The notes under the pieces were generated by a model. That model was not told where the DNA came from, ran no database searches, and saw only the letters and a program-made list of their open reading frames with translations. From an uncultured Candidatus Saccharibacteria bacterium (GTDB lineage Bacteria; Patescibacteriota; UBA1384; CAILIB01): a stretch of 64,000 bases of DNA. The number at the start of each line of letters is the position of its first letter. Position 1 is the first letter of the stretch. A program made the translations under genes and the position numbers. Of this stretch, positions 8,101 through 45,411 are shown in pieces. The stretch lies in assembly GCA_964593885.1 (NCBI GenBank), contig CAZQKK010000001.1, positions 361,929-425,928 on the forward strand, written 5' to 3'.

Positions 8101-11100
8101 CAGTACCCAGAAGATGTATCGGTACGATATCACCAACGACGCCGCGGGGTGGGATGACCTGAGCGCCGAAGATTCTCCTTCTGCCTTTTCTACAGGCGGG
8201 TTCATGGTCAGTAATGGTACCTACATCTACGCCATGCGTGGAAACAACGATGATGCCTTCTATCGCTACGATCCTGCAACCACCAGCGATGGACAGTGGA
8301 CTACCATGGCAAACGTGGACTTTGGTTTCCCAACGGTGGGCCAAAACAACATTCCAACCACTGGTGCCGGTCTGGCATTTGATGGTGCCAGTAGCATCTA
8401 TGCAATTCAAGGTAATGGTCAATCTGGTGGGTTTGCTAAGTACAACATTGGGAGCAACACCTGGACACAGCTCTACAGTACGCCTCTCCCAATCATGCCA
8501 AATGCCGGAGCTTTCATTGCCTGGGATCCAGATCTCCAGAAGCTGCTCTACAACGCTGGAGCAATCTCAACCAAGACCTACCTCTACGACCCTGCTAACC
8601 CAGGTTGGACGGCGGTAGCTTCCGCTCCTGCCCAGATGAGTACCGGTGCCTTTGCCTTCAAGCAGGGGACGAAGTTCTACGTCTTGAGGGGTGGAAATAA
8701 CACCCAGATGTACACCTACAACTCAGCCAAGAACACCTGGCGTGTACCTGCAGCCGGCCTCTTCGGCTACAACTACGCAAGTGGTAGCAACTTTGGGGTT
8801 GGGTACGGAGCTGACATGATTACTGCTTCAGATGGCACTGTCTATGCTACCAGGGGTAACTACTCTTCAGACTTCATTAAGTACAACCCAACCACAGGGG
8901 CGGTTACCCGTTTGAGTAACCTACCTTCGGGTGTCTACCTAGGAGGTTCGCTGGTCTACCGGGCAAATACCCAGCAAATCTATGCAACTGTGGGAACTGG
9001 TACCAACAATGGTACTGCCTTCTTCATCTACACCATCTCCACCGATACGTGGGCAGAGCAAACCTCAGACCCACTTCCTATCATTGCTGGGGCGGGCTCT
9101 TCTATGGCTTACGACGGTTCACGCTACATCTACTACACGCGAGCAGGTACCTCTACCGGTTGGTACCGCTACGATACCTCTGCTTCAGTTGGGGCAAGGT
9201 GGTCAGCGGCCCTCCCTACCACTAACTTGCTCAACCTAGACTACGGTTCAGACCTCGTGTACCGCAGCGGCTACATCTACACACTTCGTGGTAGCAACGT
9301 CAATCCAAACATTCTCTACAGGTTTGATACCACCGCTCTTCCTGGTGGAACCTGGACAGCGCTTGCCTCAATTCCAAACCCAGTCTACAACGATGGCTTC
9401 ATGGTTGATGGTGGAAACGGTTACCTCTATGCAGCACGTGGTATCAACACTAACAGCGTCTATCGTTACGACATTGTAGGAAACACGTGGGCAACCGTAG
9501 CAAACTTCCCAGGTCAGGTTTCTATCGGAGGTGAGGGAACCACTAATGGTACTAGCAAGATCTACTCCTTCGCTGGGCAGGGAACCGCTACCTGGACAGA
9601 CGCTATCTACAGCTACGTTATTCAGAGCAGTAACTCTAGCTTTGAAGAAACTGGTTCATACACCTCACCTTCAATAGACCTCTCAACTGTCTACAAGTGG
9701 GCAAACCTCACGGTGGACTACACGGTGCCAAGTAACGGTGGGGTAACCATCGAAACCCGTAGTTCTGCTGATAATAGTTCATGGTCAGGTTGGGCAAGTA
9801 CCGGTACTGGTCAGCGCAACGGTACAACCTACACCTACGCCATTTCATCTCCTTACAACCGCTACATCCAGGTGAGATTCAGTCTCAGCTCCACCGATGG
9901 TGTCTTCAGTCCTACGGTGAGTAGCTTCCAGGTTAACTACTACCAAGATACTACTGCTCCTACTAACCCTACTGCTCTTGCGCTGGCAAAGTCACAGGCT
10001 TCTGGCGGAGTGAACATCACATCTGATACCTGGTACAACTACAGCGCCCCGTACTTTGAGTGGCCTGCCGCTGGCGACGTGAACGGTGCCGCAGATACAG
10101 CAGGTGGCAGTGGAGTAGCTAACTACTACGTCTACTACGGCACAGATAACACGGCAGTTCCAAGTACTGCTGGGGTGCTCCAGAGTGGGCGAAGCTACAC
10201 GGCGGGAGCAATGAGTAGCGGGCAGACGTACTACCTGAGAATCCAGACTGTAGACGATGCGGGTAACATTCAGGGAGCTATTTGGGATGCCTACACCTAC
10301 AAGCTTGATACTACGGCACCTACGAACCCAGGAAGTATTGGGGTAAATCCAGTTGGCTACACCAACGTAGACTCGTACACGTTTACCATTTCAGGTGGAG
10401 CTAGTGACGCAAACTCTGGTCTCCTCAAGTACCAGTACCGCACTGGGGCAGATGGTGCCAATACCTGGTACGACGTCTCGCCAGCTCTCAGTGCAACGGT
10501 AACACTCCCAGATGGTGCCCATACCCCCGCCCACTATGTAGACGGGGCAAATGTCTTCTACTTGAGAACTGTTGATGCTGCAGGCAACGTCGCTCCAACC
10601 CCAATTTCGGTGCAGTACTACTTTGGGAGCAGCGCTCCTTCGCCACCAACAAACCTTCAGGTAACACCAGCTACCAACACTACCAACTCGTTTACCTTTG
10701 AGTGGGAAGATCCAGCTGCCTTCATTGGTGAAGCCAATAAGCTTACCTACTACTACAGCGTCAACACCCTTCCAAATGAGTTCAATACCAATAGTACTAC
10801 TGCAAAGGCTGTGGGGCCTGCTCCATTTGCCAGCCAGCGTGGCACTAACCGCTTCTACGTTGTTGCTAAAGATGAGGCAGGTAACATTGACTACGACCAG
10901 TACGCCTATGTAGACTTCACCGCTGATACCTCAGCTCCTCCTGCACCTACTGCGGTTACCGCAAGTGATATCTCAAACAAAGAGGGAGGCGAGTTTAGGC
11001 TGGTTATCTCTTGGCTGGTTCCTACCATTACCGACCCTAACAACTTCAACGGGTACGACATTTACGCTGCCTCTGACGAAGCCGGTCCTTACACAAAGAT

Positions 11101-12463
11101 TGCAAACACTAGCGGTACCGCTTACGTACACACAGACCTGGTGAAAGATGGTGAGTACTTCTACTACGTCCAGTCTATTGATAAGACCGGAAACCACTCA
11201 GCATCTTCCTCAACTGCTTCAGCCATTGCCACAGGTAGGTACACCAAGGCGCCAGCCATCGTTTCTGAGCCGTCAGCAGTGTCACAGGCACGATCAGCCA
11301 AGGTAAGTTGGGCAACTGCTCGCCAGGCCACATCTGCAGTTGAGTACGGAACCACTGAAGAATTTGGTAATACCACAGGTAATTCACCTACCCAGCTGGT
11401 TACCAGCCACGAGGTGCTCTTGGGTAACCTACAGCCAGACACCGTCTACTTCTACCGTGCGGTATTCTTGGATGAAGATGGAAACACGGGAGTTTCTCCA
11501 GTTGCCTCCTTCCTTACCAAGCCAGCACCAGTTGTGGCAGGCCTCGAGGTAACCGACATTACCCTCAGCAGCTTCTGGGTAAGTTGGCAGTCAAATGTAC
11601 CTTCCCAGGGTGAGGTTGTCTACGGTGCTACCCAGGCATTTGGGGGAACAGTGAAAGAAGATCCTTTCTACACCACCACCCACCGGGTAAAACTTGAAGG
11701 GCTGCCAAGTGACACCATCCAGAACTTCCAGATTAAAGCTACGGATGAAGAGGGCAACATCTTCACCTCAGACATCTACACCCAAAGTACCTTGGCACTT
11801 CCTAAGGTGAGCAACGTGAAGCTTGAGAACAAGGTAGGGGTTGATACACCTACGGTGATCGTTCAGTTCTCTACCAACGTTGATGCAACCACCATCGTGA
11901 GGTACAGCACTGAGGGAAGCACTGAGAAGATCTACAGCGGTGTGGATTACTCTCTCGAACACGAACTTATTCTGGATGGCCTCCTACCTACCAAACCTTA
12001 CGTTCTGAAGATCAGTGGTAGAGATAGGTACGGAAACGAGTCAGCCCAGCAGCTCCACACCATTACCACCAAGTCTGATACCCTCCCTCCTAAGGTAGAG
12101 GCAATTACCGAGCGCCAAAGGGTTAGTGGAGAAGGTGCGGCGGCAGAAGCACAGCTTACCGTTAGGTTGACCACCAATGAGCCTGCTAAAGTAGTAGTTG
12201 AAGCAGCTCAGGGTACCGGGGCAACCCAGTTCACCATTGTTTCTCCTGAGCAGGCACTCAGTAGGGAGCACACCGTCCTCCTTCGCCTCGGAAAGCCAAA
12301 CGCCGCCTACACCTACAGGGTTACGGTGACAGATGAAGCAGGTAACCAGGCACAGACAGAAACCAAGACAATTGTGGTAGGTAGGGCAAACAAGGGAGCC
12401 TTTGAGCAGATTCTGGCTATCTTCAGCAGGAGCTTTGGCTGGCTCGGTTCAGTATTCAAGTAA
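5120..12463 (+). CDS. Giant surface protein (about 2447 aa): N-terminal TM, multiple Kelch-like beta-propeller repeats, a repeated beta-sandwich domain, and multiple FN3-like domains.
   Basis: Long ORF with one N-terminal TM helix (IHWAIFGHYVAAIAIVGALVL). It carries many '..GTNT.YRYD....W..L' Kelch-like repeats and repeated 'TAPTNP' FN3-like linkers. An alternative ATG start at 5210 is possible because TATAATG overlaps the 5120 ATG. Confidence 0.75.
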   Translation: MTEMRSSDTIFEVQALPPKHRPLKRAHHLLMSKGGTYHRWHQHPHHKKIHWAIFGHYVAAIAIVGALVLQGGFGSTALAAPLTYTVSNKDAWNQGTLSNTDSETTAGDLKVAPDGAWTARTWKTPPETLTLGAAFATDDTDVFVLKGNGDNAFWKYSPTLNTWSVLTNAPYGAYGSSLRMGGADTLYAIFGGYIAKFAKYTISTNTWTLLADLPDTVFNGSTLGWTGSALYLLRAGGTQDFWLYDTALDSWSSVAGPPATVGYGADLIWDGSTYFYTPRGAGTNTIYRFAPGTSTWSTMSTNYSTTISETSFGVYYSGALYFMRGTNTANFDRCTISALTCSGGAWTALTAFPAATRYAGMVYIPSLTQFLVFRGNTTMEHWRYNIAGNSFVGPAAYPATTGTGNDLLWDGSDTVYSLRGGNTNNFYKYTISTNTWAALTVTGLGTINSDSTNLAKSGNYVYALRGNGTNTLYRYDVTNDAGGWTTMTNAPATIADGGDFVYPGSGSYIYATRGTNTVSFYAYHIGNNNWTTLDPTDPGVAVSTGGRLVSDGTNVYMNPGLGNTNLYRYNVAGNNWTTLSRMPFAPYYGFDFAYNSGKIYATAGNYANTFWEYNIAGGTWRQLKSTQNDTTNERGFYNGAAIEYIGSNTILATRGAGSSEVLSFSTGSYEYAATGTYVSQTLDLSYVASWNSLTLSTSIPSGAAVSSDTRTSADGSTWSSWAAVSGTTISSPTNRYLQIRINLTAGTGRSTTPTVSDYVLSYNTDEALPTNPATFTCNSQDVGGVALTSGNTYTYPKPSCSWTAGSDGESGLAGYYVYFGTNASADPASLGWQQTATTYTVEQPISAGTYYLRVASVDAKNNVATATTGFTYVYAGVSPPTTVTKTLTADFSGGTESNVVTTSDQIRLTSKAGFWQEERLTAVPAGVGAGAGMVYKSTTGLIYVLRGNGTNTFYSYNPTTDAWVTLSSTNLPVVNVGGMLVNGPGNYLYAHAGNSTQKMYRYDITNDAAGWDDLSAEDSPSAFSTGGFMVSNGTYIYAMRGNNDDAFYRYDPATTSDGQWTTMANVDFGFPTVGQNNIPTTGAGLAFDGASSIYAIQGNGQSGGFAKYNIGSNTWTQLYSTPLPIMPNAGAFIAWDPDLQKLLYNAGAISTKTYLYDPANPGWTAVASAPAQMSTGAFAFKQGTKFYVLRGGNNTQMYTYNSAKNTWRVPAAGLFGYNYASGSNFGVGYGADMITASDGTVYATRGNYSSDFIKYNPTTGAVTRLSNLPSGVYLGGSLVYRANTQQIYATVGTGTNNGTAFFIYTISTDTWAEQTSDPLPIIAGAGSSMAYDGSRYIYYTRAGTSTGWYRYDTSASVGARWSAALPTTNLLNLDYGSDLVYRSGYIYTLRGSNVNPNILYRFDTTALPGGTWTALASIPNPVYNDGFMVDGGNGYLYAARGINTNSVYRYDIVGNTWATVANFPGQVSIGGEGTTNGTSKIYSFAGQGTATWTDAIYSYVIQSSNSSFEETGSYTSPSIDLSTVYKWANLTVDYTVPSNGGVTIETRSSADNSSWSGWASTGTGQRNGTTYTYAISSPYNRYIQVRFSLSSTDGVFSPTVSSFQVNYYQDTTAPTNPTALALAKSQASGGVNITSDTWYNYSAPYFEWPAAGDVNGAADTAGGSGVANYYVYYGTDNTAVPSTAGVLQSGRSYTAGAMSSGQTYYLRIQTVDDAGNIQGAIWDAYTYKLDTTAPTNPGSIGVNPVGYTNVDSYTFTISGGASDANSGLLKYQYRTGADGANTWYDVSPALSATVTLPDGAHTPAHYVDGANVFYLRTVDAAGNVAPTPISVQYYFGSSAPSPPTNLQVTPATNTTNSFTFEWEDPAAFIGEANKLTYYYSVNTLPNEFNTNSTTAKAVGPAPFASQRGTNRFYVVAKDEAGNIDYDQYAYVDFTADTSAPPAPTAVTASDISNKEGGEFRLVISWLVPTITDPNNFNGYDIYAASDEAGPYTKIANTSGTAYVHTDLVKDGEYFYYVQSIDKTGNHSASSSTASAIATGRYTKAPAIVSEPSAVSQARSAKVSWATARQATSAVEYGTTEEFGNTTGNSPTQLVTSHEVLLGNLQPDTVYFYRAVFLDEDGNTGVSPVASFLTKPAPVVAGLEVTDITLSSFWVSWQSNVPSQGEVVYGATQAFGGTVKEDPFYTTTHRVKLEGLPSDTIQNFQIKATDEEGNIFTSDIYTQSTLALPKVSNVKLENKVGVDTPTVIVQFSTNVDATTIVRYSTEGSTEKIYSGVDYSLEHELILDGLLPTKPYVLKISGRDRYGNESAQQLHTITTKSDTLPPKVEAITERQRVSGEGAAAEAQLTVRLTTNEPAKVVVEAAQGTGATQFTIVSPEQALSREHTVLLRLGKPNAAYTYRVTVTDEAGNQAQTETKTIVVGRANKGAFEQILAIFSRSFGWLGSVFK

Positions 12464-34853: not shown

Positions 34854-35186
34854 CTAGAGAACCGGCCAAATCTGGTTACCTGCTTCGTCTTTCACGATAA
34901 TTGCGTTGAAGGGGCAAATTTGAGCTGATTCAAGGACCCGTTCCTGCATTTCTGCAAGGGAGACATCCTCGGTGTTGAGTAGGTCATTCACGAGCACGGT
35001 ACCATCAGGCGTGGTGAGCAGGTTTCCTGGGTCATCAGAGTTACTACCGTTGTTGGTGAGGAGAACTGCTTTAGATTCATCGTCTAATTCGTAGATATTC
35101 CAGGCGAGGCAGGTCATAGCAGATTGGCAGAGCTCGCGGTCTACCTGCACACTGTGGGGTCTCCCAGTAGGGTTAACTTCGCTCAT
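34854..35186 (-). CDS. Ferredoxin-like protein (single 4Fe-4S cluster domain family) with a degenerate Cys motif.
   Basis: VDRELCQSAMTC...AQICPFNAI aligns with the mono-cluster ferredoxin pattern VD..TC..C..C....CP but lacks the middle Cys. Confidence 0.45.
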   Translation of the reverse strand: MSEVNPTGRPHSVQVDRELCQSAMTCLAWNIYELDDESKAVLLTNNGSNSDDPGNLLTTPDGTVLVNDLLNTEDVSLAEMQERVLESAQICPFNAIIVKDEAGNQIWPVL

Positions 35187-36742
35187 GACGAGGCGGGACT
35201 AAAGACAGAAGCAACACTTCCGGGGGTGAGATCTGAAGGAGGGGTATCTTGCCCGCTCTGGCTACTTGAGATCTGGCGCTTTGGCTGAGGCTTTGGGATT
35301 GCCTGGTTTACGAGGTACTTCACTGCCCACGTGAAGCCTGTGGCCTCTTTCAGAGCATCTTGCACAAGGTAAAGGTTTTTCTTCTCTGAGAGCTTGTCTG
35401 CGTGAAACTTATACTTCACGTAGATGGTGATGGTATTTGCCTCGGCTACGTGGAAAACGGTCTGCCTGAGCAGCTGGCTGATAGGGTAGTTTACCACGGC
35501 TATTGCTTCGCAGCAGGCTTTCCAAGCTTTACGAACATCTACGCTTGCCGGAGCAGGTTCAGCCTCTCGTAGCTCTACCACGGGCACACTTGCAGGAGCT
35601 TTTGCTGGTGAGCTAGTTGGTTTGACGGTAACAATTTGAGGGGTAGCTGCTTCAACCGGGGAAACTGGCTCTTGTGAGGTTTTCTTTGGGGCAACTATTG
35701 GTTTTGGAGAGCTCATACTTTCACCGGAGCCTGCAGAAATTGCCTCAGCGCTCTCTAAACAGGCAATGGTGAGGGGAAGGTTCTGGACAGGAGAGCTCTT
35801 TTGGAGGATGTGTGCCTCGAGGAGGTTCTTGAGAAAGGTGAGGTGGGATGGTTCCAGCTTTACTGAAGTTCTAACCTGGGTAATTGCCTCCTGGATGATC
35901 CAGCTGTACCTCAGGCTTTGGTCAGAGAAGTGCTTGGAGAGGATACTACTAGTAGCATCAGAGGATCCGGAAAGGACCGCTTCACAGAGGCTGCTAATGT
36001 GGTTTGCTGAAACGGTGCCTAGGGCTTCCTCGGCGAGTGCTGTGGTGACGTGAGGGTGTTGGGTGGTGAGCTGCTCGAGGATGGTTTCAGCATCGCGGAA
36101 GCTTCCGTCTGCAGCAGCCGCGATAATCTGGAGAACCTGTGCATCGACCTTCAAAGTATTAGCTGCCGTAATCTTCTCAAGCTTGGTAACGATGCTCTCA
36201 ATGCTGGCTCTTTCAAACCTGATGAGCTGGCAGCGCGACCTAACCGTAGCTGGTAGCTTATGCACATCTGTTGTGGCGAGAATGAAGAGGCAGTGAGAAG
36301 GGGGTTCCTCGAGAGTTTTAAGGAGTGCGTTAAATGCCTCGTTGGTCAACATATGAACCTCATCCACGATGTATATTTTGCGTGGAAGTTGAATTGGTCC
36401 GTACTGTGCCTGCTCGCGCAAGCTCCTCATTTCCTCAATGCCCCTATTTGAGGCAGCATCAATTTCAAGGAGGTCTGGGGTGTGGCCGTTGGTGATAGCT
36501 ATGCAGTTTGGACAGGTACCACACGCCTCAATGCTAGTTTTTGTGAGAACAGGGGAGGTGCAGCAGATGGTTCTGGCAAATACCCTTGCAGTGCTTGTCT
36601 TACCAGTTCCCCTTGGTCCGCTGAAAAGGTAGGCATGGGAGACCCTATCCTTCAAAATAGCCTGTTGGAGGATGTTTCTCGCTTGGTTTTGACCGATGAG
36701 ATCTTTGAACTGGGTAGGGCGGTGCTGGCGGTAGAGTGTCAT
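35183..36742 (-). CDS. dnaX: DNA polymerase III subunit gamma/tau.
   Basis: MTLYRQHRPTQFKDLIGQ..., Walker A GPRGTGKTS and a Zn-module CxxC. Start set at the internal ATG at 36742. Confidence 0.85.
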   Translation of the reverse strand: MTLYRQHRPTQFKDLIGQNQARNILQQAILKDRVSHAYLFSGPRGTGKTSTARVFARTICCTSPVLTKTSIEACGTCPNCIAITNGHTPDLLEIDAASNRGIEEMRSLREQAQYGPIQLPRKIYIVDEVHMLTNEAFNALLKTLEEPPSHCLFILATTDVHKLPATVRSRCQLIRFERASIESIVTKLEKITAANTLKVDAQVLQIIAAAADGSFRDAETILEQLTTQHPHVTTALAEEALGTVSANHISSLCEAVLSGSSDATSSILSKHFSDQSLRYSWIIQEAITQVRTSVKLEPSHLTFLKNLLEAHILQKSSPVQNLPLTIACLESAEAISAGSGESMSSPKPIVAPKKTSQEPVSPVEAATPQIVTVKPTSSPAKAPASVPVVELREAEPAPASVDVRKAWKACCEAIAVVNYPISQLLRQTVFHVAEANTITIYVKYKFHADKLSEKKNLYLVQDALKEATGFTWAVKYLVNQAIPKPQPKRQISSSQSGQDTPPSDLTPGSVASVFSPASS

Positions 36743-36797
36743 GCCCCTAGTATAGCGAAAAGCATGGTACAATGAACCTGTTACAAAGCGAGGGGCA

Positions 36798-38765
36798 ATG
36801 ATCACATCACCAGACATTATTGAACACATTGTGAGTACCGCAGAGCTCAGCAAAGCAGAAGCTGAGCGTCTTGAAGGCGCACTCTGGGAAGTGATTGGGA
36901 GGGAGATCTCCGTTGGTGAAGAAGTTGAAGTGCCGGGTCTCGGGCACTTTTTCACGGTGAAGTACCCTGGCCACGAGTCTGAATCTGGTGAAATTGGCCT
37001 TCCAACGGTTGAGCCAGAGTTTGAGCCGTCATCAGAGCTTGTTGGAGTGGTGAAGAAAGCCATGGAAGACCACGCAGAGCTGTTTGAGGAGGAGCATGGT
37101 GAGGGTGAACCAGATGAAGCGCCGCTCCGAGAGGTATCTCCTCCTGATCCTTCAGAGCCAGAAGCCGAAAAGCCTGTAAAGAAAGAGCGTCCTCTGGGGC
37201 GGGCCTCAACGGTAACCTACGTTGATATTTCAAAGCTGAAGGTTGAGAAGGATATTCTCTCACTCCTCCCACTTCCGCTCGCCCAAAAGTACAGCGCTGT
37301 CCCAATTGATCTGAAAGAAGGAGAGCTTACTGTTGCGATGATTAACCCTGAGGACTTCGATGCAGTGCAGCTGCTTCGCAAGGAGACAGGGCTCTCTATC
37401 AAGCCAGTGCTTACTTCAAGAGATGACCTCCAGTTTGTCCTTGACCAGTACACGGGTCTGCAAGCAGAGGTGCAAGAAGTTATTGCAAGCTCAGAGTTTG
37501 GCATTTCAAAGCAGGATTTGGCTGCAGCCAAAGAGGAGCAGGCAACCCTCGAGGAAGATAATGAGGATGCTCCAACTGCCAAGATTGTTGGTTCGCTCCT
37601 GAAACGGGCGGTAAAAGAGCGTGCTTCAGACATCCACATTGAGCCCTACGAGCACAAGGTGGTGGTGAGGTTCAGGATTGACGGCATCCTCATGGTGAGG
37701 GTTGAACTTCCTAAGGAGATCCAAGATGCCATGGCGGCACGTCTCAAAATCCTCGCAAACCTCAAGATTGACGAGCAACGTCTTCCGCAAGACGGTAGGT
37801 TCAGTATGAACCTGGACAGGAGGGAGGTAGACTTCCGTATCTCAACCATTCCGGTGGTATTTGGCGAGAAGGTGGTTATGCGTATCCTCGATAAACAGCA
37901 AGGAATCAGGGACCTTTCAGAGGTAGGACTCCAGGGAAGTGGCCTTGAAATTCTCAAGAAAAATATTGAGCGAAGCCACGGGATGATCTTGGTTACCGGA
38001 CCTACGGGATCGGGTAAAACTACCACGCTCTATGCAGTACTCGGGCGTCTCATGAAGCCAGATGTGAACATCCTCACCCTCGAGGATCCTGTTGAGTACC
38101 GCATTGAGAGCATCAACCAGAGCCAGGTGCACAACGATATTGGCTACAGCTTTGCAAACGGGCTTCGAGCAGTGGTAAGGCAAGACCCAGATGTGGTGAT
38201 GCTTGGAGAGATTAGGGATAAAGAGACAGCTGAAATGGCGGTGCAGGCTGCCCTTACTGGTCACGTTGTGCTTTCAACCCTCCACACCAACGATGCTGCG
38301 GGAGCCTTCCCAAGGTTGATTGATATGGGAATTGAGCCATTCCTGATCACTTCATCAATTCACACCGTTATCGCCCAACGTTTGGCACGAAAGTTAGACC
38401 CCGAACATCGCCAGGAGCGAAAACTCACCGGGGATGAGCTTGACGAGGTTGTGGCTGAGATTGAGAAGATGCCAGAAGCCGTGCAGAAGCAGCTGAAGGA
38501 CGAAGGGGTGGATCTCAAGAACCCTGTGGTCTACCAGCCAAAGGAGGAGAATGGGAGCAGTGGCTACATTGGGAGAATGGGAATCTTTGAAGTCCTCGAC
38601 ATGACTGAAAAGATTAGAGCCCACATTCTGGAGCGAAAGTCAGGCTCGATTATCAGGGATGAAGCGGTGAGTAACGGCATGCTGACCATGGTCCAAGATG
38701 GTATCGCAAAAGCTGTCACCGGGCAGATTAGCCTAGAAGAGGTCTGGCGAGTAACCAGAGAGTAG
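36798..38765 (+). CDS. pilB: Type IV pilus assembly ATPase PilB/GspE with an N-terminal HU/IHF-fold domain.
   Basis: SD GAGGGG before the ATG. Residues 1-90 align to HU (AELSKAEAERLE..VPGLGHFFTVK...). Then a T2SSE_N domain and the ATPase with Walker A GPTGSGKTT. Confidence 0.85.
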   Translation: MITSPDIIEHIVSTAELSKAEAERLEGALWEVIGREISVGEEVEVPGLGHFFTVKYPGHESESGEIGLPTVEPEFEPSSELVGVVKKAMEDHAELFEEEHGEGEPDEAPLREVSPPDPSEPEAEKPVKKERPLGRASTVTYVDISKLKVEKDILSLLPLPLAQKYSAVPIDLKEGELTVAMINPEDFDAVQLLRKETGLSIKPVLTSRDDLQFVLDQYTGLQAEVQEVIASSEFGISKQDLAAAKEEQATLEEDNEDAPTAKIVGSLLKRAVKERASDIHIEPYEHKVVVRFRIDGILMVRVELPKEIQDAMAARLKILANLKIDEQRLPQDGRFSMNLDRREVDFRISTIPVVFGEKVVMRILDKQQGIRDLSEVGLQGSGLEILKKNIERSHGMILVTGPTGSGKTTTLYAVLGRLMKPDVNILTLEDPVEYRIESINQSQVHNDIGYSFANGLRAVVRQDPDVVMLGEIRDKETAEMAVQAALTGHVVLSTLHTNDAAGAFPRLIDMGIEPFLITSSIHTVIAQRLARKLDPEHRQERKLTGDELDEVVAEIEKMPEAVQKQLKDEGVDLKNPVVYQPKEENGSSGYIGRMGIFEVLDMTEKIRAHILERKSGSIIRDEAVSNGMLTMVQDGIAKAVTGQISLEEVWRVTRE

Positions 38766-38770
38766 CCATC

Positions 38771-39973
38771 ATGCCAACATTCAAGTTTGTTTTCAAAGAT
38801 GGTGGGGTGAAGCCGGTGAAGGGCACGTTAGAGGCGCCATCGTACGCTGAGGCGCTCAGCCAGCTGCGCAAGCGTGACGGGATTATCGTTGAGCTAGCTG
38901 AGGCAAAATCAGGAGGGTTGAGCAGAATATTTGGCAAAAAAGGTCTCAACCTCAAAGAGAGGATCATCTTTACCGAGCAGCTTGCGGTAATGCTTAATGC
39001 TGGAATTACGCTACTCCAGGCACTGAAGAGTCTGGAGGAAGAAGCCCAAAACAAGAAGTCAAAACGTCTGTTTGGGGCACTTGCAACAGAGCTAGAGGGG
39101 GGAACTCCTTTCTCAAAGATTCTCGAGAAGTACCCTGAGTCATTCTCCGAGGTGTACTCACACATGGTGAAGTCTGCAGAGAAGAGTGGAAACCTCGCTG
39201 ATATCCTCCTGAAACTCACCGACCAGCAACGCAAAGAGTACGACCTCAAGGGTAAAGTGAAGGGAGCACTCATCTACCCGGCGGTAGTTTCGGTACTCCT
39301 GGTAGGAGTTATCACCTTGGTTATCACCTTCGTTATCCCAAGGCTGTCTAGTCTCTTCACTGAAACTGGTACCGCACTTCCGCTCAGTACCAGGATTGTC
39401 TTGGCACTCTCCAACTTCATGACAACCAAGTGGTACGTCCTTGTTATCATCATTGGTGGGATCATTTTTGGCCTCAAGGCGATGTACAAAACCTACCGGG
39501 GTAGGCGAATTCTAGATGGTATTAAGCTCAAAGTTCCGATTATTGGAGGCTTCACCAGTAAGGCTATCATCGCACGGTTTGCCCAGACCTTCAGCTTTCT
39601 CTCGCAGGCAGGGGTGCCGGTGCTCGAGATTTTTGAAACCCTCAAAGGGGTTATGGGTAATGCTATTTACGCAGATGAAATTGAGCGAATGTCTAGGGAA
39701 GTTGAGAACGGCACACCTCTCTCAACCTCAATTAGGAAGAGCAAGCACTTCCCAGCCATGGTGGGACAGCTGGTTAAGGTGGGGGAACAGTCAGGAGACC
39801 TGGCAGGGATGTTCAAGGTGCTAGGGAACTTCTTTGAAAAGGAGGTTGATACCATGGCCAAGAACCTCTCAACACTCTTGGAGCCAATCATCATGATTAT
39901 CATGGGTGTGGTAATTGGCTTCATCTTGATTGCCGTTCTCCAGCCAATCTATGGTTTAATTAATGCAGTCTAG
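38771..39973 (+). CDS. pilC: Type IV pilus inner-membrane platform protein PilC (GspF family).
   Basis: Two T2SSF repeats, three TMs, typical N-terminus MPTFKFVFKD. Confidence 0.9.
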   Translation: MPTFKFVFKDGGVKPVKGTLEAPSYAEALSQLRKRDGIIVELAEAKSGGLSRIFGKKGLNLKERIIFTEQLAVMLNAGITLLQALKSLEEEAQNKKSKRLFGALATELEGGTPFSKILEKYPESFSEVYSHMVKSAEKSGNLADILLKLTDQQRKEYDLKGKVKGALIYPAVVSVLLVGVITLVITFVIPRLSSLFTETGTALPLSTRIVLALSNFMTTKWYVLVIIIGGIIFGLKAMYKTYRGRRILDGIKLKVPIIGGFTSKAIIARFAQTFSFLSQAGVPVLEIFETLKGVMGNAIYADEIERMSREVENGTPLSTSIRKSKHFPAMVGQLVKVGEQSGDLAGMFKVLGNFFEKEVDTMAKNLSTLLEPIIMIIMGVVIGFILIAVLQPIYGLINAV

Positions 39974-39992
39974 CTAAACGGAGCACCAAAGG

Positions 39993-41021
39993 ATGGGACT
40001 CTTCCAGAAAACTGTTGTCGGGGTAGAAGCAATTGCCGCAGGGGTGCGGGTGGTTGAGGTTGAGCTTTCGCGTAGTCCCAGGGTGGTAAGCATTGGTGAA
40101 GCTCTCATTCCAGCTGAAGAACAACACCACGGCACCGGCTTGGATATTATCGCTATGGGGGGAAAGCTTGATGAGGCACTCACAGCCGCAAAACCTAAGC
40201 GAATTACTACACGCGATGCCTACCTCTCCGTTCCAGAAGATAAGGTTTTCAGGAAAATTCTCGAGATACCTGCCAGCGTAACTGATGCGGAACTTGCAGG
40301 GGTGGTGAGGTCTGAGGTCTCAAGCTACCTGCCTAGTGAGCTTGATACCATGGAAATTGATTTCCAGGTGCTCCCTCGTCGTGCCAACCAGGCAACTCAA
40401 CCTGAGCGAGATCCAAAAGAAAAGAAGCGTGAAGATAAAGGAGATAAGGATGAGAAGGAAGACAAAGAAGACAAAGAAGAGAAAGCACCTGCTCAGCCTC
40501 CACTTTACGTTTCGGTGGTTGCCGTTGATAAACAGGTTGTGCACGAGATCATTGCCCTCTGTGAGCATGCAAAACTGAGGCCTGTGAGCATTGATACCCG
40601 CCCAGCGGCTATTTCACGTGCCGTGGTGCCACCAAAAGATCAGAATGTTGCCATTGTGGTGGAGTGGCACGGGGGCGAAGCGATGGTTGCCGTGGTTGAG
40701 CGAGGTGTTGTTTGGGTGACAGGTATGACCAAAGCAGGCGAAGATACTGATGTTGCGGCTTCAGCAATTGCCGACGAAATTGAGCACGCGGTGAAGTTTT
40801 TCACCAATCGAACGGGAAGTAGCACCTCAATTTCGCAAGCCTACGTTGTCTCAGCCAACCCAGAGGCTGCAGAGCTTAGGAAGAAGCTCGAGAAGCTCAT
40901 GGATAGCGACATTGCCGTAGTTGAGGGGGTTCCTGTGGTACCTCTTCCTGGGGGAAGCGATGCCCGCTACAGCGCTGCTCTCGGTGCAGCTCTCTACTCG
41001 CTGTATAGTACCCTTGTATGA
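39993..41021 (+). CDS. pilM: Type IV pilus assembly protein PilM (actin-like).
   Basis: N-terminus LFQKTVVGVEAIAAGVRVVEV and a PilM-like fold; contains a K/D/E low-complexity insert. Confidence 0.75.
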   Translation: MGLFQKTVVGVEAIAAGVRVVEVELSRSPRVVSIGEALIPAEEQHHGTGLDIIAMGGKLDEALTAAKPKRITTRDAYLSVPEDKVFRKILEIPASVTDAELAGVVRSEVSSYLPSELDTMEIDFQVLPRRANQATQPERDPKEKKREDKGDKDEKEDKEDKEEKAPAQPPLYVSVVAVDKQVVHEIIALCEHAKLRPVSIDTRPAAISRAVVPPKDQNVAIVVEWHGGEAMVAVVERGVVWVTGMTKAGEDTDVAASAIADEIEHAVKFFTNRTGSSTSISQAYVVSANPEAAELRKKLEKLMDSDIAVVEGVPVVPLPGGSDARYSAALGAALYSLYSTLV

Positions 41022-41596
41022 AGCAGATAAACCTCCTCCCACCCGAACTTGCATCACAGCGTTCAAGGCAGCGCGCCGTTCCTGCACTAGTATTGGCTGT
41101 TCTGATGGCATCAGGAACCATCCTGCTTCCGTGGTGGATGCTCAGGGGAGTAGAGGCTTCGCTGGATGAGCAGATCGTTCACCAGCAGGAGGTGCTTGGG
41201 ATTAGTACAGGCACCGGAAAGGTAGTTGATGAGAGCTTTGAGGTACTTTCAGTGGGTGAGATTGGGGGTAAGGTAGCGGCACTCAACCAGCTGGCAGCAA
41301 GGGAGCTCTCTTGGTTAGACGTTCTGACTTCGGTAGGTAATTTGGTGCCAAAAGATATTACACTCTCTACCTACTCAGTTAGCACTAACCCAACCGACGT
41401 GAATATTAGGTTGGTAGGTGAAGCCCCCTCAAACTTGAGTTTTGCCACATTCGTAGAGTCTCTCAGGCAGAATAAAACAGTGTCAAAAGTGGTGGTTGAG
41501 GGCTTTCAGTTCTCACCAACTAAGGGCACGGTAAGCTTTGTGGTTCAGGTTTCAAGTCCAATCAAGAATTACCGGTACAGTGAGGTGGCAAAGTGA
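41018..41596 (+). CDS. pilN: Type IV pilus assembly protein PilN.
   Basis: MKQINLLPPEL hallmark and a single TM helix. Confidence 0.75.
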   Translation: MKQINLLPPELASQRSRQRAVPALVLAVLMASGTILLPWWMLRGVEASLDEQIVHQQEVLGISTGTGKVVDESFEVLSVGEIGGKVAALNQLAARELSWLDVLTSVGNLVPKDITLSTYSVSTNPTDVNIRLVGEAPSNLSFATFVESLRQNKTVSKVVVEGFQFSPTKGTVSFVVQVSSPIKNYRYSEVAK

Positions 41597-42231
41597 AGAA
41601 AATAGCACCAGCAGTAGTAGTGATTTTCGTTTTCTGTGTCGTTTTTGCTGGTGGCTTCTTTGGTCTGGTGTACCCTTCAATTAAGCCAATTGGGAGGAAG
41701 CTTTCAAAACTTGCGGCGTACAGTCAGCAATCAACAAAAGCGGTGGCTCCTAGCTCTCGGAGTGCTGAACTAGAGGCGCAACGTCAGCAACTTGAACTCG
41801 AGAAGGATAAGATTTCAAAGCTCCTTCCAGACGAGAGCAACGTGTACGATCTTTCTATCCAGATTGAGGCGTTGGCAAAGAGTACCGGGGTTACCATGAC
41901 ATCGGTAAGTCTGCTTCCAGCCGCTGAAACAACCGTAGCAAAGACAAAGAGCACCACGGCAATAGCTACGGTACAGGCGCCTCCAGCTGGTACCGCTACT
42001 TCGACAATTGCCGTCAGTCTCTCCGGGAGCTACGATGCCCTCAGGAGTTTCTTGGATGGCATAACCCAACTTGAGCGGTACATAGAGGTAGTAGATGTAT
42101 CCTTTGCATCGGGGACTTCAGGAGTGAGCATGACGCTCAGTGCTGTGGCATTCTCTGCTCAAAAGGCACCTGCGGCAACCCCTGCACCAGCTGCAACTTC
42201 CAAGCCAACAACAGGAGGGAAAGATGAGTAG
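41593..42231 (+). CDS. pilO: PilO-like pilus assembly protein.
   Basis: N-terminal TM, coiled-coil, translational coupling with pilN. Confidence 0.5.
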   Translation: MKKIAPAVVVIFVFCVVFAGGFFGLVYPSIKPIGRKLSKLAAYSQQSTKAVAPSSRSAELEAQRQQLELEKDKISKLLPDESNVYDLSIQIEALAKSTGVTMTSVSLLPAAETTVAKTKSTTAIATVQAPPAGTATSTIAVSLSGSYDALRSFLDGITQLERYIEVVDVSFASGTSGVSMTLSAVAFSAQKAPAATPAPAATSKPTTGGKDE

Positions 42232-42529
42232 CGTGAAACGTCAGGCAAAGAGGATTGCTCTCGTTGAGCCGATCAACTGGGTGCTACTCATCCTCTCACT
42301 CATGCTCTTGAGTGGTGCAACGGCAATTACCTGGATTGGTTTGCAGCCTGCTACCTATGAGACTGCCGTTACCAAAGAAGTCCAGGATGAGGTGCAGGCA
42401 TCCCTGGCTAAGCAAATTGATAGCCCAGAGATACCTACCTTAAATCTCAACAAGAAGAATAAGCGTCAGGGACCAGAGGTAACGGTAGATCCAAACAACA
42501 TTGGCAAAACCAATCCTTTCGTAAAGTAG
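42224..42529 (+). CDS. Small TM protein in the pilus operon (PilP-like or accessory).
   Basis: Strong SD AGGAGGG before the ATG at 42224; one TM helix. Confidence 0.4.
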   Translation: MSSVKRQAKRIALVEPINWVLLILSLMLLSGATAITWIGLQPATYETAVTKEVQDEVQASLAKQIDSPEIPTLNLNKKNKRQGPEVTVDPNNIGKTNPFVK

Positions 42530-42591: not shown

Positions 42592-43101
42592 TTAGGCTGC
42601 GGCAGGAGGCTCTGAAGAAACGGTATCCTCTGCTGGTACCTCTAGAGGCTGCTGAGGGCCTCCACCGCCTTCGTACACGCCGAGAGGGGATGGTGATGCG
42701 CTTGCGTCTGGGGTGCCAGCAGCGTTATTCAGGCGCTTCTTTACCTCCTCAATAATTTCTCCTGGGAGAACCTCAGATTTCACAACGTAGGCATCAGCTT
42801 GAGTCATGATCTTGTTGAGCTTCTCAATTTCCTGCACCAGGGCGGTGACAATAATGACAGGGATTTTGGCGGTTTCAGGGTTCTCTTTGAGGCTCTTCAA
42901 GACATCGAGGCCGTTCATCTTTGGCATCATGATGTCCAGGATGATGAGGGAGGGGTTGTACTCCTTCACAAACTCCAGGGCCTCTTCACCATTTCCAGCA
43001 TGTACAACGGTAAAACCCTCTTGCTTTAAGCGCTCAGTGTAGAGCTCTGAAAGGATGATGTCATCTTCTGCCAGGAGAATGGTTGTGCCTTCGTACGCCA
43101 T
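42592..43101 (-). CDS. Single-domain response regulator (CheY-like receiver) with disordered C-terminal tail.
   Basis: TILLAEDD...ILDIMMPKMNG...VIIVTA receiver motifs. Confidence 0.8.
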   Translation of the reverse strand: MAYEGTTILLAEDDIILSELYTERLKQEGFTVVHAGNGEEALEFVKEYNPSLIILDIMMPKMNGLDVLKSLKENPETAKIPVIIVTALVQEIEKLNKIMTQADAYVVKSEVLPGEIIEEVKKRLNNAAGTPDASASPSPLGVYEGGGGPQQPLEVPAEDTVSSEPPAAA

Positions 43102-43203
43102 AGGTGTGAGGTGCTGGTGAAATGTAACAGGTTCATTGTAGCATCGAAAGAATGACACGCAAGGACTGCGAGGTCTTGTGGAACGATGACCAGAGGTGGC
43201 TGA

Positions 43204-45411
43204 CTACGTAGCGAGAGACTTTTCAACCTCGAGGAGGGGTAGGGTGAAGGTAAAGGCGCTACCTTTGCCTGGGGTACTCTGCACCACAATGGAGCCACCC
43301 ATTCGCTCAACAATAGACTTGGTGATGTAGAGCCCAAGCCCCGTTCCGATGATCCCAACCGTCTCTTTTGAATCTGCTCGGTAGAACTTTTCAAAGAGGT
43401 GTGACATTTGCTCTTTATCCATCCCTAGGCCGTTATCGGCAACCGTAATGCTGACCATACGCTCCTTCTTGAGGAGCTCGGTGGTTACTGAAACTTCGCC
43501 ACCAGATCTGTTGTACTTAATGGCGTTACTCACCAGGTTAATGAGTACCTGCGAGGTCCTATCTGGGTCTGCCAGTACTGGTGGGAATGCAACTTCTGGC
43601 TTCTTGAACTTCAGGGTGATGTTCTTTTCCTGAGCGATGAACCTTAGCTGATCGATGGTGTCCTGGATAGACTTGATGCTATCGAGCTGCTGGGCGGTAA
43701 ACTTCATCTTGCCAGACTCAATGCGTGAAACTGAGAGGAGGTCTTTCACCAGCATCGAGAGGCGTTTTGCAGAAGAGAAACACTTGCTCAGGTAGTCGGT
43801 GGTTTGAGGATCTAGTCCCTTTCCGGCAATCTTCTCGTCTAGGATCATGCTGAGGTACCCCTCAATAGCCGAGATAGGGGTGAGGAGCTCGTGTGAGGCA
43901 ATGGAGACAAACTCGCTCTTCATCTGGTCGCCCTCGTAGAGCTTTGCTTTCTGGATAGACGAAATGGCCTGGTCTCCCACCAGCTCAAGGAGGGTGAGGT
44001 CTTGCTTACTGTAGCTCTCGTTGGACTGCTTGCTTGAGAGAAGGATGAGCCCAATTGGCTGGTCTTTGAGGATGAGTGGCATGGCCACGGCTACCTCAAG
44101 CTGTTCCAGCTTCTTGGCAACGGCAGACCTAATGGCGTGCTCCCGGATGAACTCGGCTTGCGTTTTGCCAGCCTCCAGCTTTCGCTTACCCTCAATGAGG
44201 AGTTTTTCATGGGCGAGTTCAGCAGCCAGGCTTTCAGTGAAGAGAATCTTTGGGTGGTTGCAGAAGTAGTGCATCACAAAGTCGCGTTCTTCCAGAATGA
44301 GCCTCTGGGTGGTTGAGTAGCCAATCTGTTTGATGCGCTTGATGGCTTGTTCGCCCCGGTCAGCCTGCTGGAAAACGTAGGTAACGGCATGGTGGAGGTG
44401 GAGGGCCTTGGCGGTTGTCTGCATCACTACCTCCAGGGCTTCGTCTAGGGCAATAACGTTGTTGAGCTTCTGGGAGAGCTCTTTAATGACCACCTCTTGC
44501 TCGTACTCTTTCTTGAAGAGCCACTTGTCGGTTCGCTCCGAGACCCAAACTTTTAGTGGCTGGAAGCTGTAGCCAATGATCAGAGCGGCAATGAGGTTAA
44601 CAATGAAAGAAGCACTGTTGAGGCTATCAAGCTGGAAGAGCTGGGCGAAGAGGGTAAGTACGGTGGCGTATACCACAAAGATGAAGGTAAGGAGCGATGC
44701 AAAAATTACCGTTCGCCTGATGAATAGCCTGATATCAAAGAGGTGCTGGGTTACGATGGCGTACGTGGTGAACCCAACGAAGATAACGGTGAAGAGAGGG
44801 CTGAGAGCGATACCCGCATTTGTTGAATTGAGGAGCGGGAGGAAGAGGTTGAAAATAATAATGAGCCCAAACATGAGGCCGAGTCCTAAGAGGAGGAGGA
44901 AGATTTGGTGGCGTTTTGTACCCCGTGATGAGAGGTACTTCTTGATGAGGACGTAGAGACCACTAAAGACGAGCCCTAGTGCGTAGGGGAGGAAGGCGGC
45001 AAAGCCAGGACCTGGGGTTGGGCTGTAGCTACCATCGGCTGCAGTGGTGAGACCAGTGAAGAGGTAGGGGCTCATCGTGATGAATCCTACAATCGCTCCA
45101 ATAACTAAGAGGAGCTGGTAGCGGGAGCTCTTGAGAGGCTGTCTCTGGTCTGGGAAGGTGATCACCAGCAGGTAGACAAAGAGGGATTGGGCTGTAGCGG
45201 TGAGCATCACGGCTCTCGTCCAGAAGAGGGCTACCTCGATGGTGGTAGCATGGAGCGAAAGGTATGTTGCGATAATCCAGGATGCAATGGAGAGGCAGAG
45301 GTAGAAGAAGAACTTGTTGGTGGCACTCTGCTTGTTAAAGATGAACACAACAAGTCCCATTGCCACATTTGCAATGGCAGCGATACTCGCAATGTAGAGC
45401 TCTAGTCCCAT
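43204..45411 (-). CDS. Sensor histidine kinase with N-terminal multi-TM sensor region.
   Basis: H-box SIASHELLTPISAIEGY; N-box LINLVSNAIKYN; G-boxes DNGLGMD and GTGLGLYI. Confidence 0.85.
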   Translation of the reverse strand: MGLELYIASIAAIANVAMGLVVFIFNKQSATNKFFFYLCLSIASWIIATYLSLHATTIEVALFWTRAVMLTATAQSLFVYLLVITFPDQRQPLKSSRYQLLLVIGAIVGFITMSPYLFTGLTTAADGSYSPTPGPGFAAFLPYALGLVFSGLYVLIKKYLSSRGTKRHQIFLLLLGLGLMFGLIIIFNLFLPLLNSTNAGIALSPLFTVIFVGFTTYAIVTQHLFDIRLFIRRTVIFASLLTFIFVVYATVLTLFAQLFQLDSLNSASFIVNLIAALIIGYSFQPLKVWVSERTDKWLFKKEYEQEVVIKELSQKLNNVIALDEALEVVMQTTAKALHLHHAVTYVFQQADRGEQAIKRIKQIGYSTTQRLILEERDFVMHYFCNHPKILFTESLAAELAHEKLLIEGKRKLEAGKTQAEFIREHAIRSAVAKKLEQLEVAVAMPLILKDQPIGLILLSSKQSNESYSKQDLTLLELVGDQAISSIQKAKLYEGDQMKSEFVSIASHELLTPISAIEGYLSMILDEKIAGKGLDPQTTDYLSKCFSSAKRLSMLVKDLLSVSRIESGKMKFTAQQLDSIKSIQDTIDQLRFIAQEKNITLKFKKPEVAFPPVLADPDRTSQVLINLVSNAIKYNRSGGEVSVTTELLKKERMVSITVADNGLGMDKEQMSHLFEKFYRADSKETVGIIGTGLGLYITKSIVERMGGSIVVQSTPGKGSAFTFTLPLLEVEKSLAT

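Follow-up and report, generated by a model that had tools for sequence, protein, structure and literature searches.

What is a nucleoid-protein fold doing at the head of a type IV pilus motor, and does it still bind DNA there? The question is raised by the gene for the extension ATPase PilB in the 64,000-nucleotide stretch of DNA analyzed here (the window), where a domain resembling the bacterial DNA-binding protein HU precedes the usual ATPase modules. In the Patescibacteria, which are ultra-small, host-dependent and mostly uncultured bacteria, no surface machinery is better conserved than the type IV pilus, to which host attachment, motility and DNA uptake have been attributed (PMC6744442, PMC12206443). 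A nucleoid-protein fold on the extension ATPase would be an unexpected candidate for a regulator or anchor of this machinery.

The PilB ORF (36798..38765, + strand) encodes 655 aa comprising an HU-like domain, an acidic linker, an MshEN/N1E-like domain and a T2SSE ATPase, and it runs through all of these without an intervening stop, as the preliminary description had stated. The good Shine-Dalgarno sequence claimed there is also present: GAGGGG at 36790..36795 (+ strand) lies 2 nt 5' of the ATG, is kept in one related locus (L005) and has the form GGAGGGG in two others (L009 and L001). A translation start further downstream, at about aa 140, had been named as grounds for abandoning the fusion, and is ruled out, as no in-frame ATG, GTG or TTG lies between codons 89 and 181. 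Upstream, and divergent from pilB as previously noted, is dnaX (DNA polymerase III gamma/tau, 519 aa, 35183..36742, - strand, Pfam DNA_pol3_delta2), the real start of which is 36742 and not the longest-ORF start at 37063; gene calls in relatives give 513, 468 and 512 aa, and the divergent arrangement is conserved. Neither a sigma-70-type promoter nor a terminator was found in the 55-bp dnaX-pilB intergenic region, and the 64-kb window returned no tRNA and no Rfam matches. Downstream (38771..42529, + strand) are pilC (38771-39973, Pfam T2SSF), pilM (39993-41021, PilM_2), pilN (41018-41596, PilN), pilO (about 41593-42231, PilO) and, at the end of the operon, a 101-aa protein of no assigned family (42224-42529). 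The order pilB-pilC-pilM-pilN-pilO, with pilB at the head, is the same in four related loci (L005, L007, L008 and L009).

The domain at PilB aa 1-96 (36798..37085, + strand) is identified as HU/IHF-like by Pfam, phmmer, profile, AF2 and Foldseek analyses. As a single sequence, PilB matches PF00216 (Bac_DNA_binding) at 26-30 bits (E 1e-5 to 7e-7), above the gathering threshold of 22.4 bits, but this match spans only aa 3-57, or profile positions 2-57 of 90. In phmmer searches of the PDB, aa 4-87 aligned to the HU protein 4qjn (E=1.3e-3), and a profile built from 63 homologous N-domains recovered HU/IHF chains at E 3e-20 to 1e-10, with positions 1-91 aligned to 1-90, i.e., the full length, so that the homology claimed along residues 1-90 stands. 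The AF2 model of aa 1-105 is confident (pLDDT 91.3) and has HU topology, with elements H4-15, H19-38, E43-45, E49-56, E70-77 and H79-91, giving the order alpha1-alpha2-beta1-beta2-(arm)-beta3-alpha3 of the HU/IHF fold, followed by a short extra helix at aa 93-96. When this model was compared with the PDB using Foldseek, the top 48 matches (E<=1e-3) were all members of the HU/IHF family, with target-normalised TM scores of 0.65-0.87. The HU dimer core is formed by F47, F50 and F79 together with the G48 turn. In the PilB family, whether the domain is acidic or basic (see below), the dimer-core positions L48, G49 (invariant), F51 (98-100%), L68, F75, P77 and L81 are kept.

The fusion is not a one-off. 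Of the 121 PilB homologues closest to the window protein, 85 have the same domain at their extreme N-terminus, and the few named carriers, on which the taxonomy of the family rests, belong to Patescibacteria or Berkelbacteria. A scan of GTDB genomes with the N-domain alignment gave four loci, in Patescibacteria and Berkelbacteria MAGs. One homologue from the searches is labelled Verrucomicrobiae, probably through mis-binning. The family was found by searching with full-length PilB; when the N-terminal 141 aa were used as query only one protein was returned, and only three with the 63-sequence N-domain alignment, since the word-indexed search evidently misses the N-termini of long PilBs. Against a 50%-identity library, a profile of the acidic clade gave 640 matches, most of them plain HU or unrelated proteins with several HU domains, a count that is uninformative on family size because HU-PilBs collapse into PilB clusters. 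A literature search that took in a minority of the subscription journals found no description of an HU-PilB fusion, and the large family that these proteins form in Patescibacteria is apparently undescribed.

Compared with one homologue (91% identical overall, 81% in the domain), the HU domain shows pN of 0.12 and pS of 0.62, or dN/dS of about 0.1 with synonymous sites near saturation, a pattern that indicates maintenance by purifying selection and by which the domain is neither a decaying relic nor the product of a mis-called start. The unusual architecture is the sole point in favor of an artefact, in which true PilB would begin at about aa 140 and the longer ORF would stem from a wrongly called start or from a frameshift or assembly error that joined two genes. 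This has next to no probability and is already refuted: 85 homologues, independent of one another and drawn from many samples, have the identical fusion, a stretch of more than 90 codons around the supposed start offers no initiation codon, a Shine-Dalgarno-like sequence stands ahead of codon 1, and the domain is in frame and under purifying selection. Residues 1-96 are thus a genuine HU/IHF-fold domain, fused in frame to a complete PilB.

The complete PilB behind this domain consists of two parts. An MshEN/GspE-N1-like domain at aa 139-223 (37212..37466, + strand; PF05157, E=5e-17) is followed by the T2SSE ATPase core at aa 254-651 (37557..38750, + strand; PF00437, E=6e-121), in which the Walker A motif GPTGSGKT (aa 401-408) is invariant among the aligned homologues. 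A published, relaxed form of the tandem 24-residue c-di-GMP motif of MshEN, RLGxx(L/V/I)(L/V/I)xxG(L/V/I)(L/V/I)xxxxLxxxLxxQ (PMC5013675), was absent from PilB and all 121 relatives in a search run without a positive-control sequence. All four Cys of the tetracysteine CxxC...CxxC Zn motif are missing in the window PilB and its nearest relatives (P0002-P0013 and P0018), and the motif is present in the remaining aligned HU-PilBs. The best Foldseek matches of PilB are Geobacter PilB (44-46% identity), GspE and PilF, and the NCBIfam equivalog cut-offs are not reached (TIGR02538, 515.7 against 675.65; TIGR02533, 547.5 against 630.25). Judged by these scores, the protein is a divergent member of the PilB/GspE family, as expected in Patescibacteria.

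Where the HU domain departs from its classical relatives is in the arm and in its charge. According to the preliminary description the basic arm had been replaced by an acidic stretch. The acidity holds, the PilB arm (VKYPGHESESGEIGLPTV, 18 aa) having a net charge of -2 compared with +3 for the 23-aa arm of E. coli HupA, but the account was incomplete, as the arm is also shorter than that of HU by about 5-7 residues and the domain as a whole has been acidified. The shortened beta-ribbon itself (aa 55-69, KYPGHESESGEIGLP, 36960..37004, + strand) is without the HU Arg residues and the tip proline. At the DNA-contact positions, R55 of HU has become Y56, R58 has become H59, R61 has become E62, P63 is deleted, K83 has become S79 and K86 has become V82, so the basic-arm feature set of HU is not found in the PilB domain; the residue correspondence rests on one alignment, with E. 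coli HupA and B. stearothermophilus HU as references, and the whole-domain homology is independently confirmed by HMMER alignments to PDB HU chains. The net charge of the whole domain is -13 over 85 aa, and the residues of the DNA clasp include 3 basic and 7 acidic, compared with 9-10 basic in HU. On strand beta3 there is an acidic stripe, E72-P-E74-F-E76 (37011..37025, + strand), conserved in the acidic clade, where these three positions are acidic in 98%, 85% and 98% of 47 sequences, respectively; the basic-arm relatives all (100%) have K at position 74, and half of them (50%) have K/R at position 76. Two further features are specific to the acidic clade, the residues R35/E36 and a motif, HPELF (here HAELF, aa 92-96, 37071..37085, + strand), that coincides with the short terminal helix of the AF2 model and is strongly conserved (P93 98%, D/E94 100%, F96 100%). 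Some of the conserved acidic residues may be paired with the clade-specific R35 instead of being exposed. Proteome-wide acidity, a halophile-like trait, is ruled out by a median pI of 5.8 over the 53 window ORFs.

Placed in one alignment, the HU-PilBs form a graded series from a basic, full-length arm through an acidic, full-length arm to an acidic, short arm, along which the PF00216 score falls from 54-62 bits over the full profile to 43 bits and then to about 29 bits over the N-terminal half only. The net charge of the domain is +4 to +13 in the basic clades and -4 to -19 in the acidic clade, and the clasp averages shift from 9.0 basic and 2.0 acidic residues to 4.2 basic and 8.0 acidic. The inversion is domain-specific, since the gap between the acidic and basic clades amounts to about 21 charges per 100 aa in the HU domain (-11.5 versus +9.7) and is small in the ATPase core (-3.0 versus -1.7). 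In the rest of PilB, K202, R208 and K287 are E in many basic-clade members, a weak hint of charge co-variation with the HU domain that covers one evolutionary transition only. A neighbor-joining tree of the ATPase cores, midpoint-rooted and without support values, has the acidic state, to which the window PilB belongs, as monophyletic and the basic forms as basal; inside the acidic clade the arm has been shortened at least twice independently, and one clade of 557-574 aa proteins, nested among the HU-PilBs, has no HU domain at all, indicating that the domain is dispensable in some lineages. Because the other branches of the family keep a basic, classical-looking arm, the acidic HU domain is a derived state of the fusion, and the domain was probably DNA-binding at its origin. 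This one gene family therefore holds an HU domain in two sharply different electrostatic states, and the series from basic to acidic to acidic with a truncated arm amounts to a natural experiment on DNA binding.

The reading we favor, at a probability of roughly 55%, is that the domain is a former DNA-binding HU that has been charge-inverted, still dimerises, and serves PilB as a docking or regulatory module, its function being inferred. A DNA-binding-type HU domain would have been fused to the N-terminus of PilB in the ancestor of a large Patescibacteria PilB clade and, in the sub-clade of the window, have become charge-inverted, with the arm truncated and the intercalating proline and Arg/Lys contacts lost. 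These three changes suggest that it would no longer clamp DNA in the manner of HU, and on the residues involved a loss of DNA binding is probable. HU is an obligate intertwined dimer, held together through a hydrophobic/aromatic core. Since that core is kept here, the PilB domain most likely still dimerises, so that the N-termini of PilB protomers would be paired, for example three pairs to a hexamer, or dimers formed beforehand that would favor its assembly.

Two other readings can be considered here. One is that nucleic acid is still bound, but non-canonically, with the domain using its helical body, for example, or pairing with a free, basic subunit of HU in a heterodimer; the conserved dimer core would allow this, and heterodimers are established in the family (HU alpha-beta, IHF alpha-beta), but with a net charge of -13, just 3 basic clasp residues where HU has 9-10, and K3, R55, R58, R61, K83, K86 and P63 all lost, we regard it as very improbable indeed. 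The other, that the domain is a vestige, having lost its DNA-binding role and being tolerated as a folded, soluble appendage without function, draws on the complete loss of the domain in the nested clade, the repeated arm shortening, and a linker that is fast-evolving and disordered. It is improbable nonetheless, given the purifying selection on the domain at nearly saturated synonymous sites, its retention across an acidic clade in which the ATPase cores are only about 55-65% identical, the confident AF2 fold, and the gain of conserved, clade-specific features (R35/E36, E72/E74/E76, and HPELF with its invariant F96).

Under the favored docking reading, the former DNA-facing surface would now present the conserved acidic stripe E72/E74/E76 followed by the clade-specific HPELF motif, and would be held on an acidic, disordered tether about 40 residues long. 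This linker (aa 97-138, 37086..37211, + strand) ends in ERPLGRAS and has pLDDT <50 over residues 98-137. It is the least conserved segment of PilB (64% identity to a close homologue, with the ERPLGRAS motif conserved), and its sequence varies between homologues yet stays acidic. Such behavior could be expected if domain and linker, both strongly negative, formed a charged bristle without any specific partner, keeping the PilB N-terminus off the nucleoid or the anionic membrane, or raising solubility in tiny, crowded cells. A bristle would need neither a conserved fold nor position-specific residues such as E72/E74/E76 and HPELF, and the opposite charge is found in the basic-arm relatives, which come from similar organisms, so we give this explanation little credence. 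On the favored reading the conserved surface would instead belong to an interaction or regulatory module, serving for docking or regulation with a positively charged partner located where the pilus machine has its base. Two observations count against the docking model: the operon content is the same in the acidic and basic forms, so that no partner protein emerged from the operon comparison, and the domain is absent from one clade.

A more specific version of binding to a basic partner is that the charge-inverted HU dimer acts as a DNA mimic or decoy, imitating bent DNA and binding a DNA-binding protein such as HU of the same cell or a protein of DNA uptake or recombination. The pilus motor would then be tied to the nucleoid or DNA-uptake state by protein-protein rather than protein-DNA contact. 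The charge reversal falls exactly where HU contacts DNA (E in place of K at 74 and 76, with R/K lost at 59 and 82), the negative domain is joined to an acidic tether, and the relatives with a basic arm, whose operon context is the same, look competent for DNA binding. Acidic DNA-mimic proteins that bind HU do exist, e.g., DMP19 and DMP12 of Neisseria. Type IV pili of the Candidate Phyla Radiation (CPR, another name for the Patescibacteria) have, moreover, been discussed in connection with DNA uptake (PMC6744442). However, the mimic reading is wholly inferential, the shorter arm lessens the geometric likeness to a DNA duplex, and no partner was found: neither the window nor any of nine related loci had a canonical hup, or another obvious DNA-binding gene, in linkage with the operon. 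It seems unlikely. A broader proposal is likewise unlikely, namely that throughout the family in Patescibacteria the HU domain ties DNA to the motor of the type IV pilus, with basic-arm forms clamping DNA and charge-inverted forms mimicking it. If true, the basic-arm HU would grip DNA, either chromosomal or entering the cell, where the pilus or DNA-uptake machine has its cytoplasmic base, the acidic form would capture a DNA-binding protein, and a single family would record the switch from DNA binder to DNA mimic.

The favored reading, of an HU domain that has left DNA for a docking or regulatory role, can be set against several known systems. Classical HU/IHF proteins (PF00216; PDB 1huu, 1p71, 1ihf, 4qjn) share with the PilB domain the fold, topology and length of about 90 aa, the GxGxF beta-turn, the aromatic/hydrophobic dimer core and the P of FxP (profile E ~1e-19). 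They differ in being free 90-aa proteins with a net charge of about +4, whereas here the domain begins a 655-aa ATPase, has a charge of -13, carries the extra HPELF motif after helix 3 and has an arm 5-7 residues shorter. Closer still are the basic-arm HU-PilBs (P0116, P0068 and P0111; 640-915 aa), which have the same HU-linker-MshEN-T2SSE architecture and pilBCMNO operon, with dnaX nearby, and fall in one clade with the window PilB on the ATPase tree. In these the HU domain matches the full PF00216 profile and is positively charged, its arm is full-length and keeps the tip proline, and HU positions R58, K80/83 and K86 are K/R, so the domain looks DNA-binding-competent; many also have much longer linkers.

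The HU module precedes the N2 and C-terminal ATPase domains and so occupies the position of the accessory modules MshEN, a c-di-GMP receptor (PMC5013675), and GspE N1E, the latter seen bound to GspL (PDB 4pht). Elsewhere, the N-terminal modules of PilB/GspE/MshE ATPases receive regulators or dock the motor to its platform. The MshEN/N1E fold is unrelated to HU, and in PilB the HU module has been added to the MshEN/N1E-like domain and does not replace it.

A precedent for an HU-derived domain leaving DNA binding is the HU-CCDC81 clade, in which the basic clasp residues have been lost and a switch to protein-protein interaction was predicted (Burroughs et al. 2017, PMC5499826). HU-CCDC81 domains also occur inside larger proteins, and some protists fuse them to an AAA+ motor, dynein-VII (PMC5499826). 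The partners, taxa and architectures are different from those of PilB, and none of the HU-CCDC81/HU-HIG Pfam models (PF14908, PF18289, PF18175, PF18291) matched the PilB N-domain above threshold, with HU-HIG at 14-15 bits (threshold 26.2) and no match to HU-CCDC81. Moreover, HU-CCDC81 lost positive charge without gaining negative charge, with about 2.7 acidic clasp residues compared with 7 in the window PilB and a mean of 8.0 in its clade. The PilB domain would thus join HU-CCDC81 as the second HU domain predicted to have moved off DNA binding, independently of the first, and as one in which the route appears to have been active charge reversal instead of simple charge loss.

The pilB ORF of the window (36798–38765, + strand, 655 aa) carries a Shine-Dalgarno-like GAGGGG (36790–36795, + strand) directly 5' of its ATG. 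In its product, Pfam recognizes an MshEN/GspE-N domain (aa 139–223, E=5e-17), a T2SSE ATPase core (aa 254–651, E=6e-121) and, at the N-terminus, PF00216 Bac_DNA_binding (aa 3–57, 26–30 bits), which is above the gathering threshold of 22.4. NCBIfam groups the protein with GspE/PilB, with scores under the equivalog cut-offs. The preliminary description had claimed that the N-terminus is related to HU along its whole length, and this was borne out. The single sequence aligns weakly to solved HU chains (aa 4–87, E=1.3e-3), and a profile of 63 homologous N-domains matches chains of both HU and IHF, with E between 3e-20 and 1e-10 (positions 1–91 vs 1–90). AlphaFold2, given the 63-homologue alignment, predicted the N-domain with a pLDDT of 91.3 and HU topology, in which two helices precede a three-stranded sheet bearing a hairpin arm and a further helix closes the domain at its C-terminus. 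All 48 Foldseek matches in the PDB at E<=1e-3 are HU/IHF-family proteins. In the full-length model, the HU domain (aa 1–96) is ordered, as is MshEN from about aa 140, with a disordered stretch at residues 98–137 (pLDDT <50) between them; the remainder resembles Geobacter PilB, Thermus PilF and GspE. The PilB N-terminus therefore has the HU fold, and it is a genuine part of an otherwise complete PilB.

A translational start near aa 140 was ruled out: codons 89 to 181 enclose no ATG, GTG or TTG in frame, and a protein begun at codon 181 would lack part of the MshEN domain. Comparison with the homologue in the related locus L005 (91% identical overall) gave pN 0.12 and pS 0.62 for the HU domain, and hence a dN/dS of about 0.1; of all PilB segments, constraint is weakest in the linker. 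The HU domain is under purifying selection. The lack of internal start codons, the low dN/dS and the recurrence of the fusion in independent metagenomic proteins together indicate that the domain is translated, and the idea that the fusion is an annotation artefact is refuted.

The domain was aligned with HupA of E. coli and HU of B. stearothermophilus; the alignability of the whole domain to HU was corroborated by the PDB-chain alignments. The arm of the window domain has 18 residues vs 23 in HU. Residues R55, R58 and R61 of HU are replaced by Y56, H59 and E62, K83 and K86 by S79 and V82, and P63, which intercalates in HU, is missing. The 85 residues of the domain sum to a net charge of −13, compared with +4 for HU. 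By the clasp measure of Burroughs et al. 2017 (PMC5499826), the domain has 7 acidic residues and 3 basic ones there, vs 9–10 basic in HU. The acidic replacement of the basic arm, also noted in the preliminary description, is real. Proteome-wide acidity was ruled out as its source, the median pI of the window ORFs being 5.8 and the PilB ATPase core merely mildly acidic. The charge inversion is domain-specific and lies at the former DNA-contact surface, the arm is truncated, and the tether is disordered. Judged from its sequence, the domain has probably ceased to bind DNA in the HU manner (we put this at roughly 0.85), and residual nucleic-acid binding is disfavoured by the charge of the domain.

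A full-length search returned thousands of PilBs, and among the best 121 an HU-like domain was present in 85, at the extreme N-terminus in every case. Few of these have named sources (Patescibacteria group or Candidatus Berkelbacteria). Their arms form a graded series in the alignment. Basic, full-length arms (e.g., YPSRTVRNPREPGKNIVMLAHGVPKFHPSG) occur in proteins of 640–915 aa that match PF00216 over its full length (54–62 bits), with a net charge of +4 to +13, and they still have a proline at the tip, and K/R where HU has R58, K80/83 and K86. Acidic, full-length arms (e.g., YPSETVEDPPGSGKTVITLPVIEPEFEPD) are found in proteins of about 650–740 aa (43 bits), and acidic, shortened arms, as in the window (e.g., KYPGHESESGEIGLPTVEPEFEPS), in proteins of about 625–735 aa, most 650–680, with PF00216 matched in its N-terminal half only (about 29 bits). 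Across the acidic clade, the net charge of the HU domain is −4 to −19. When the ATPase cores are placed on a neighbour-joining tree (midpoint-rooted, no support values), HU-PilBs form one clade in which basic forms are basal and paraphyletic, the acidic forms are all monophyletic, and the short arm has at least two origins inside the acidic clade. A clade of HU-less PilBs (557–574 aa in the tree; homologues P0088–P0108, 546–574 aa) is nested among the basic-arm forms, which implies secondary loss of the domain. The window PilB is a member of a broad family, other branches of which look DNA-binding-competent.

Linkers vary across the family. Basic-arm proteins P0099–P0121 (790–915 aa; in related locus L007, 5496–7997) have 200–300 aa between HU and MshEN without a Pfam match, and an LPDMP(D/E) motif recurs in many acidic-clade linkers. 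The acidic-clade HU profile also retrieved long proteins unrelated to PilB (P0123–P0136), in which 2–4 HU-like domains stand in tandem with K/E-rich repeats between them, and which are possibly of HU-CCDC81 type; in P0123 (750 aa), a TM segment lies at the N-terminus and HU occurs three times, its arm reading PAKDAVNPQT.

The acidic clade has also gained features. Positions 72, 74 and 76 are acidic in 98%, 85% and 98% of its members and, as they alternate along strand beta3, lie on one face; in the basic clade, position 74 is Lys in 100%, 76 is K/R in 50% and 82 is R/K in 100%. Only the acidic clade has R35-E36 in helix 2, and a new H-P-[ED]-L-F motif follows helix 3 (P93 98%, D/E94 100%, F96 100%; HAELF in the window). 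Beyond it the chain continues as a disordered, poly-acidic linker, and the conserved motif ERPLGRAS stands ahead of MshEN. The hydrophobic/aromatic positions of the HU dimer core are kept in both clades, so the domain would still dimerise through them. The conserved acidic face and HPELF may form a docking site for a positively charged partner, or a means of regulating motor assembly or activity; a DNA mimic would be a special case of this reading. A vestigial relic is disfavoured by the conserved gained features and the low dN/dS, and a non-specific acidic bristle by conservation that is position-specific. Three residues outside the domain, K202 and R208 (MshEN) and K287 (N2), are K/R among acidic-clade members but frequently E among basic-clade ones, a weak hint of possible intramolecular complementarity that traces to one evolutionary transition. 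Within the reach of computation, the analysis supports the first proposal of an interaction or regulatory module that does not bind DNA, its function being read from sequence.

Downstream of pilB lie pilC, pilM, pilN, pilO and a gene for a 101-aa unknown protein. Acidic and basic representatives share this content: dnaX lies upstream of HU-pilB, which is grouped with pilC, pilM, pilN, pilO and a gene for a protein of ~100 aa. In the window dnaX is divergent, and its real start at 36742 leaves an intergenic region of 55 bp (36743–36797). This region, which includes TGGTACAAT, is nearly identical in L005 (9948–10000), unlike synonymous sites of flanking genes, which are near saturation (pS 0.6–0.8); its conservation does not extend to relatives that are more distant, and promoter calling gave no sigma-70 consensus in it. 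In the PilB C-terminal domain (aa ~530–597; 38385–38590), all four Cys of the CxxC...CxxC zinc motif are lost, as in the nearest relatives (P0002–P0013, P0018), and the segment has become a longer Cys-free stretch; the other aligned HU-PilBs keep the motif. The pilM product (39993–41021) matches PilM_2 only in part and has a highly charged K/E/D-rich insertion (...RDPKEKKREDKGDKDEKEDKEDKEEK...) at aa ~140–165. Directly 3' of the operon, on the opposite strand (42592–45411), are genes for a very acidic, receiver-only response regulator (169 aa) and a 7TM-GAF histidine kinase; the pair also adjoins the operon in loci L005, L006 and L009, with a related pair in L007. Upstream is a very large ORF (5120–12463, + strand; 2447 aa, pI 5.0). 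Searches of the 64-kb window for tRNA, tmRNA and Rfam families gave no hit, and it contains no stand-alone HU/IHF ORF.

The pairing of an HU-superfamily domain with a PilB motor is undescribed, and in the window the domain is in a state that is derived and charge-inverted. Neither the HU field nor that of type IV pili would have expected it, and its acidic and basic sister clades offer a clean, testable contrast. The literature searched, of incomplete coverage, held no mention of the fusion, which is already visible in automatic annotations (JGI labels some examples 'PilB-like protein/nucleoid DNA-binding protein'). Compared with classical HU/IHF, the window domain belongs to the superfamily by fold but lacks the DNA-binding hallmark, a basic arm with proline, and so the term HU protein does not suit it in the functional sense. 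The closest described precedent for departure from DNA binding is HU-CCDC81, a clade that has lost clasp basic residues, is predicted to mediate contacts between proteins and in some cases is joined to an AAA+ motor (PMC5499826); the window domain does not match its Pfam models and, unlike it, has gained negative charge. MshEN is a c-di-GMP receptor upstream of the ATPase (PMC5013675), and a search run without a positive control found the published c-di-GMP motif (PMC5013675) absent from the window PilB and all 121 relatives. In PilB, GspE and MshE ATPases, regulators such as MshEN and GspE N1E bound to GspL act upstream of the ATPase, a position that the HU domain also occupies in the window protein.
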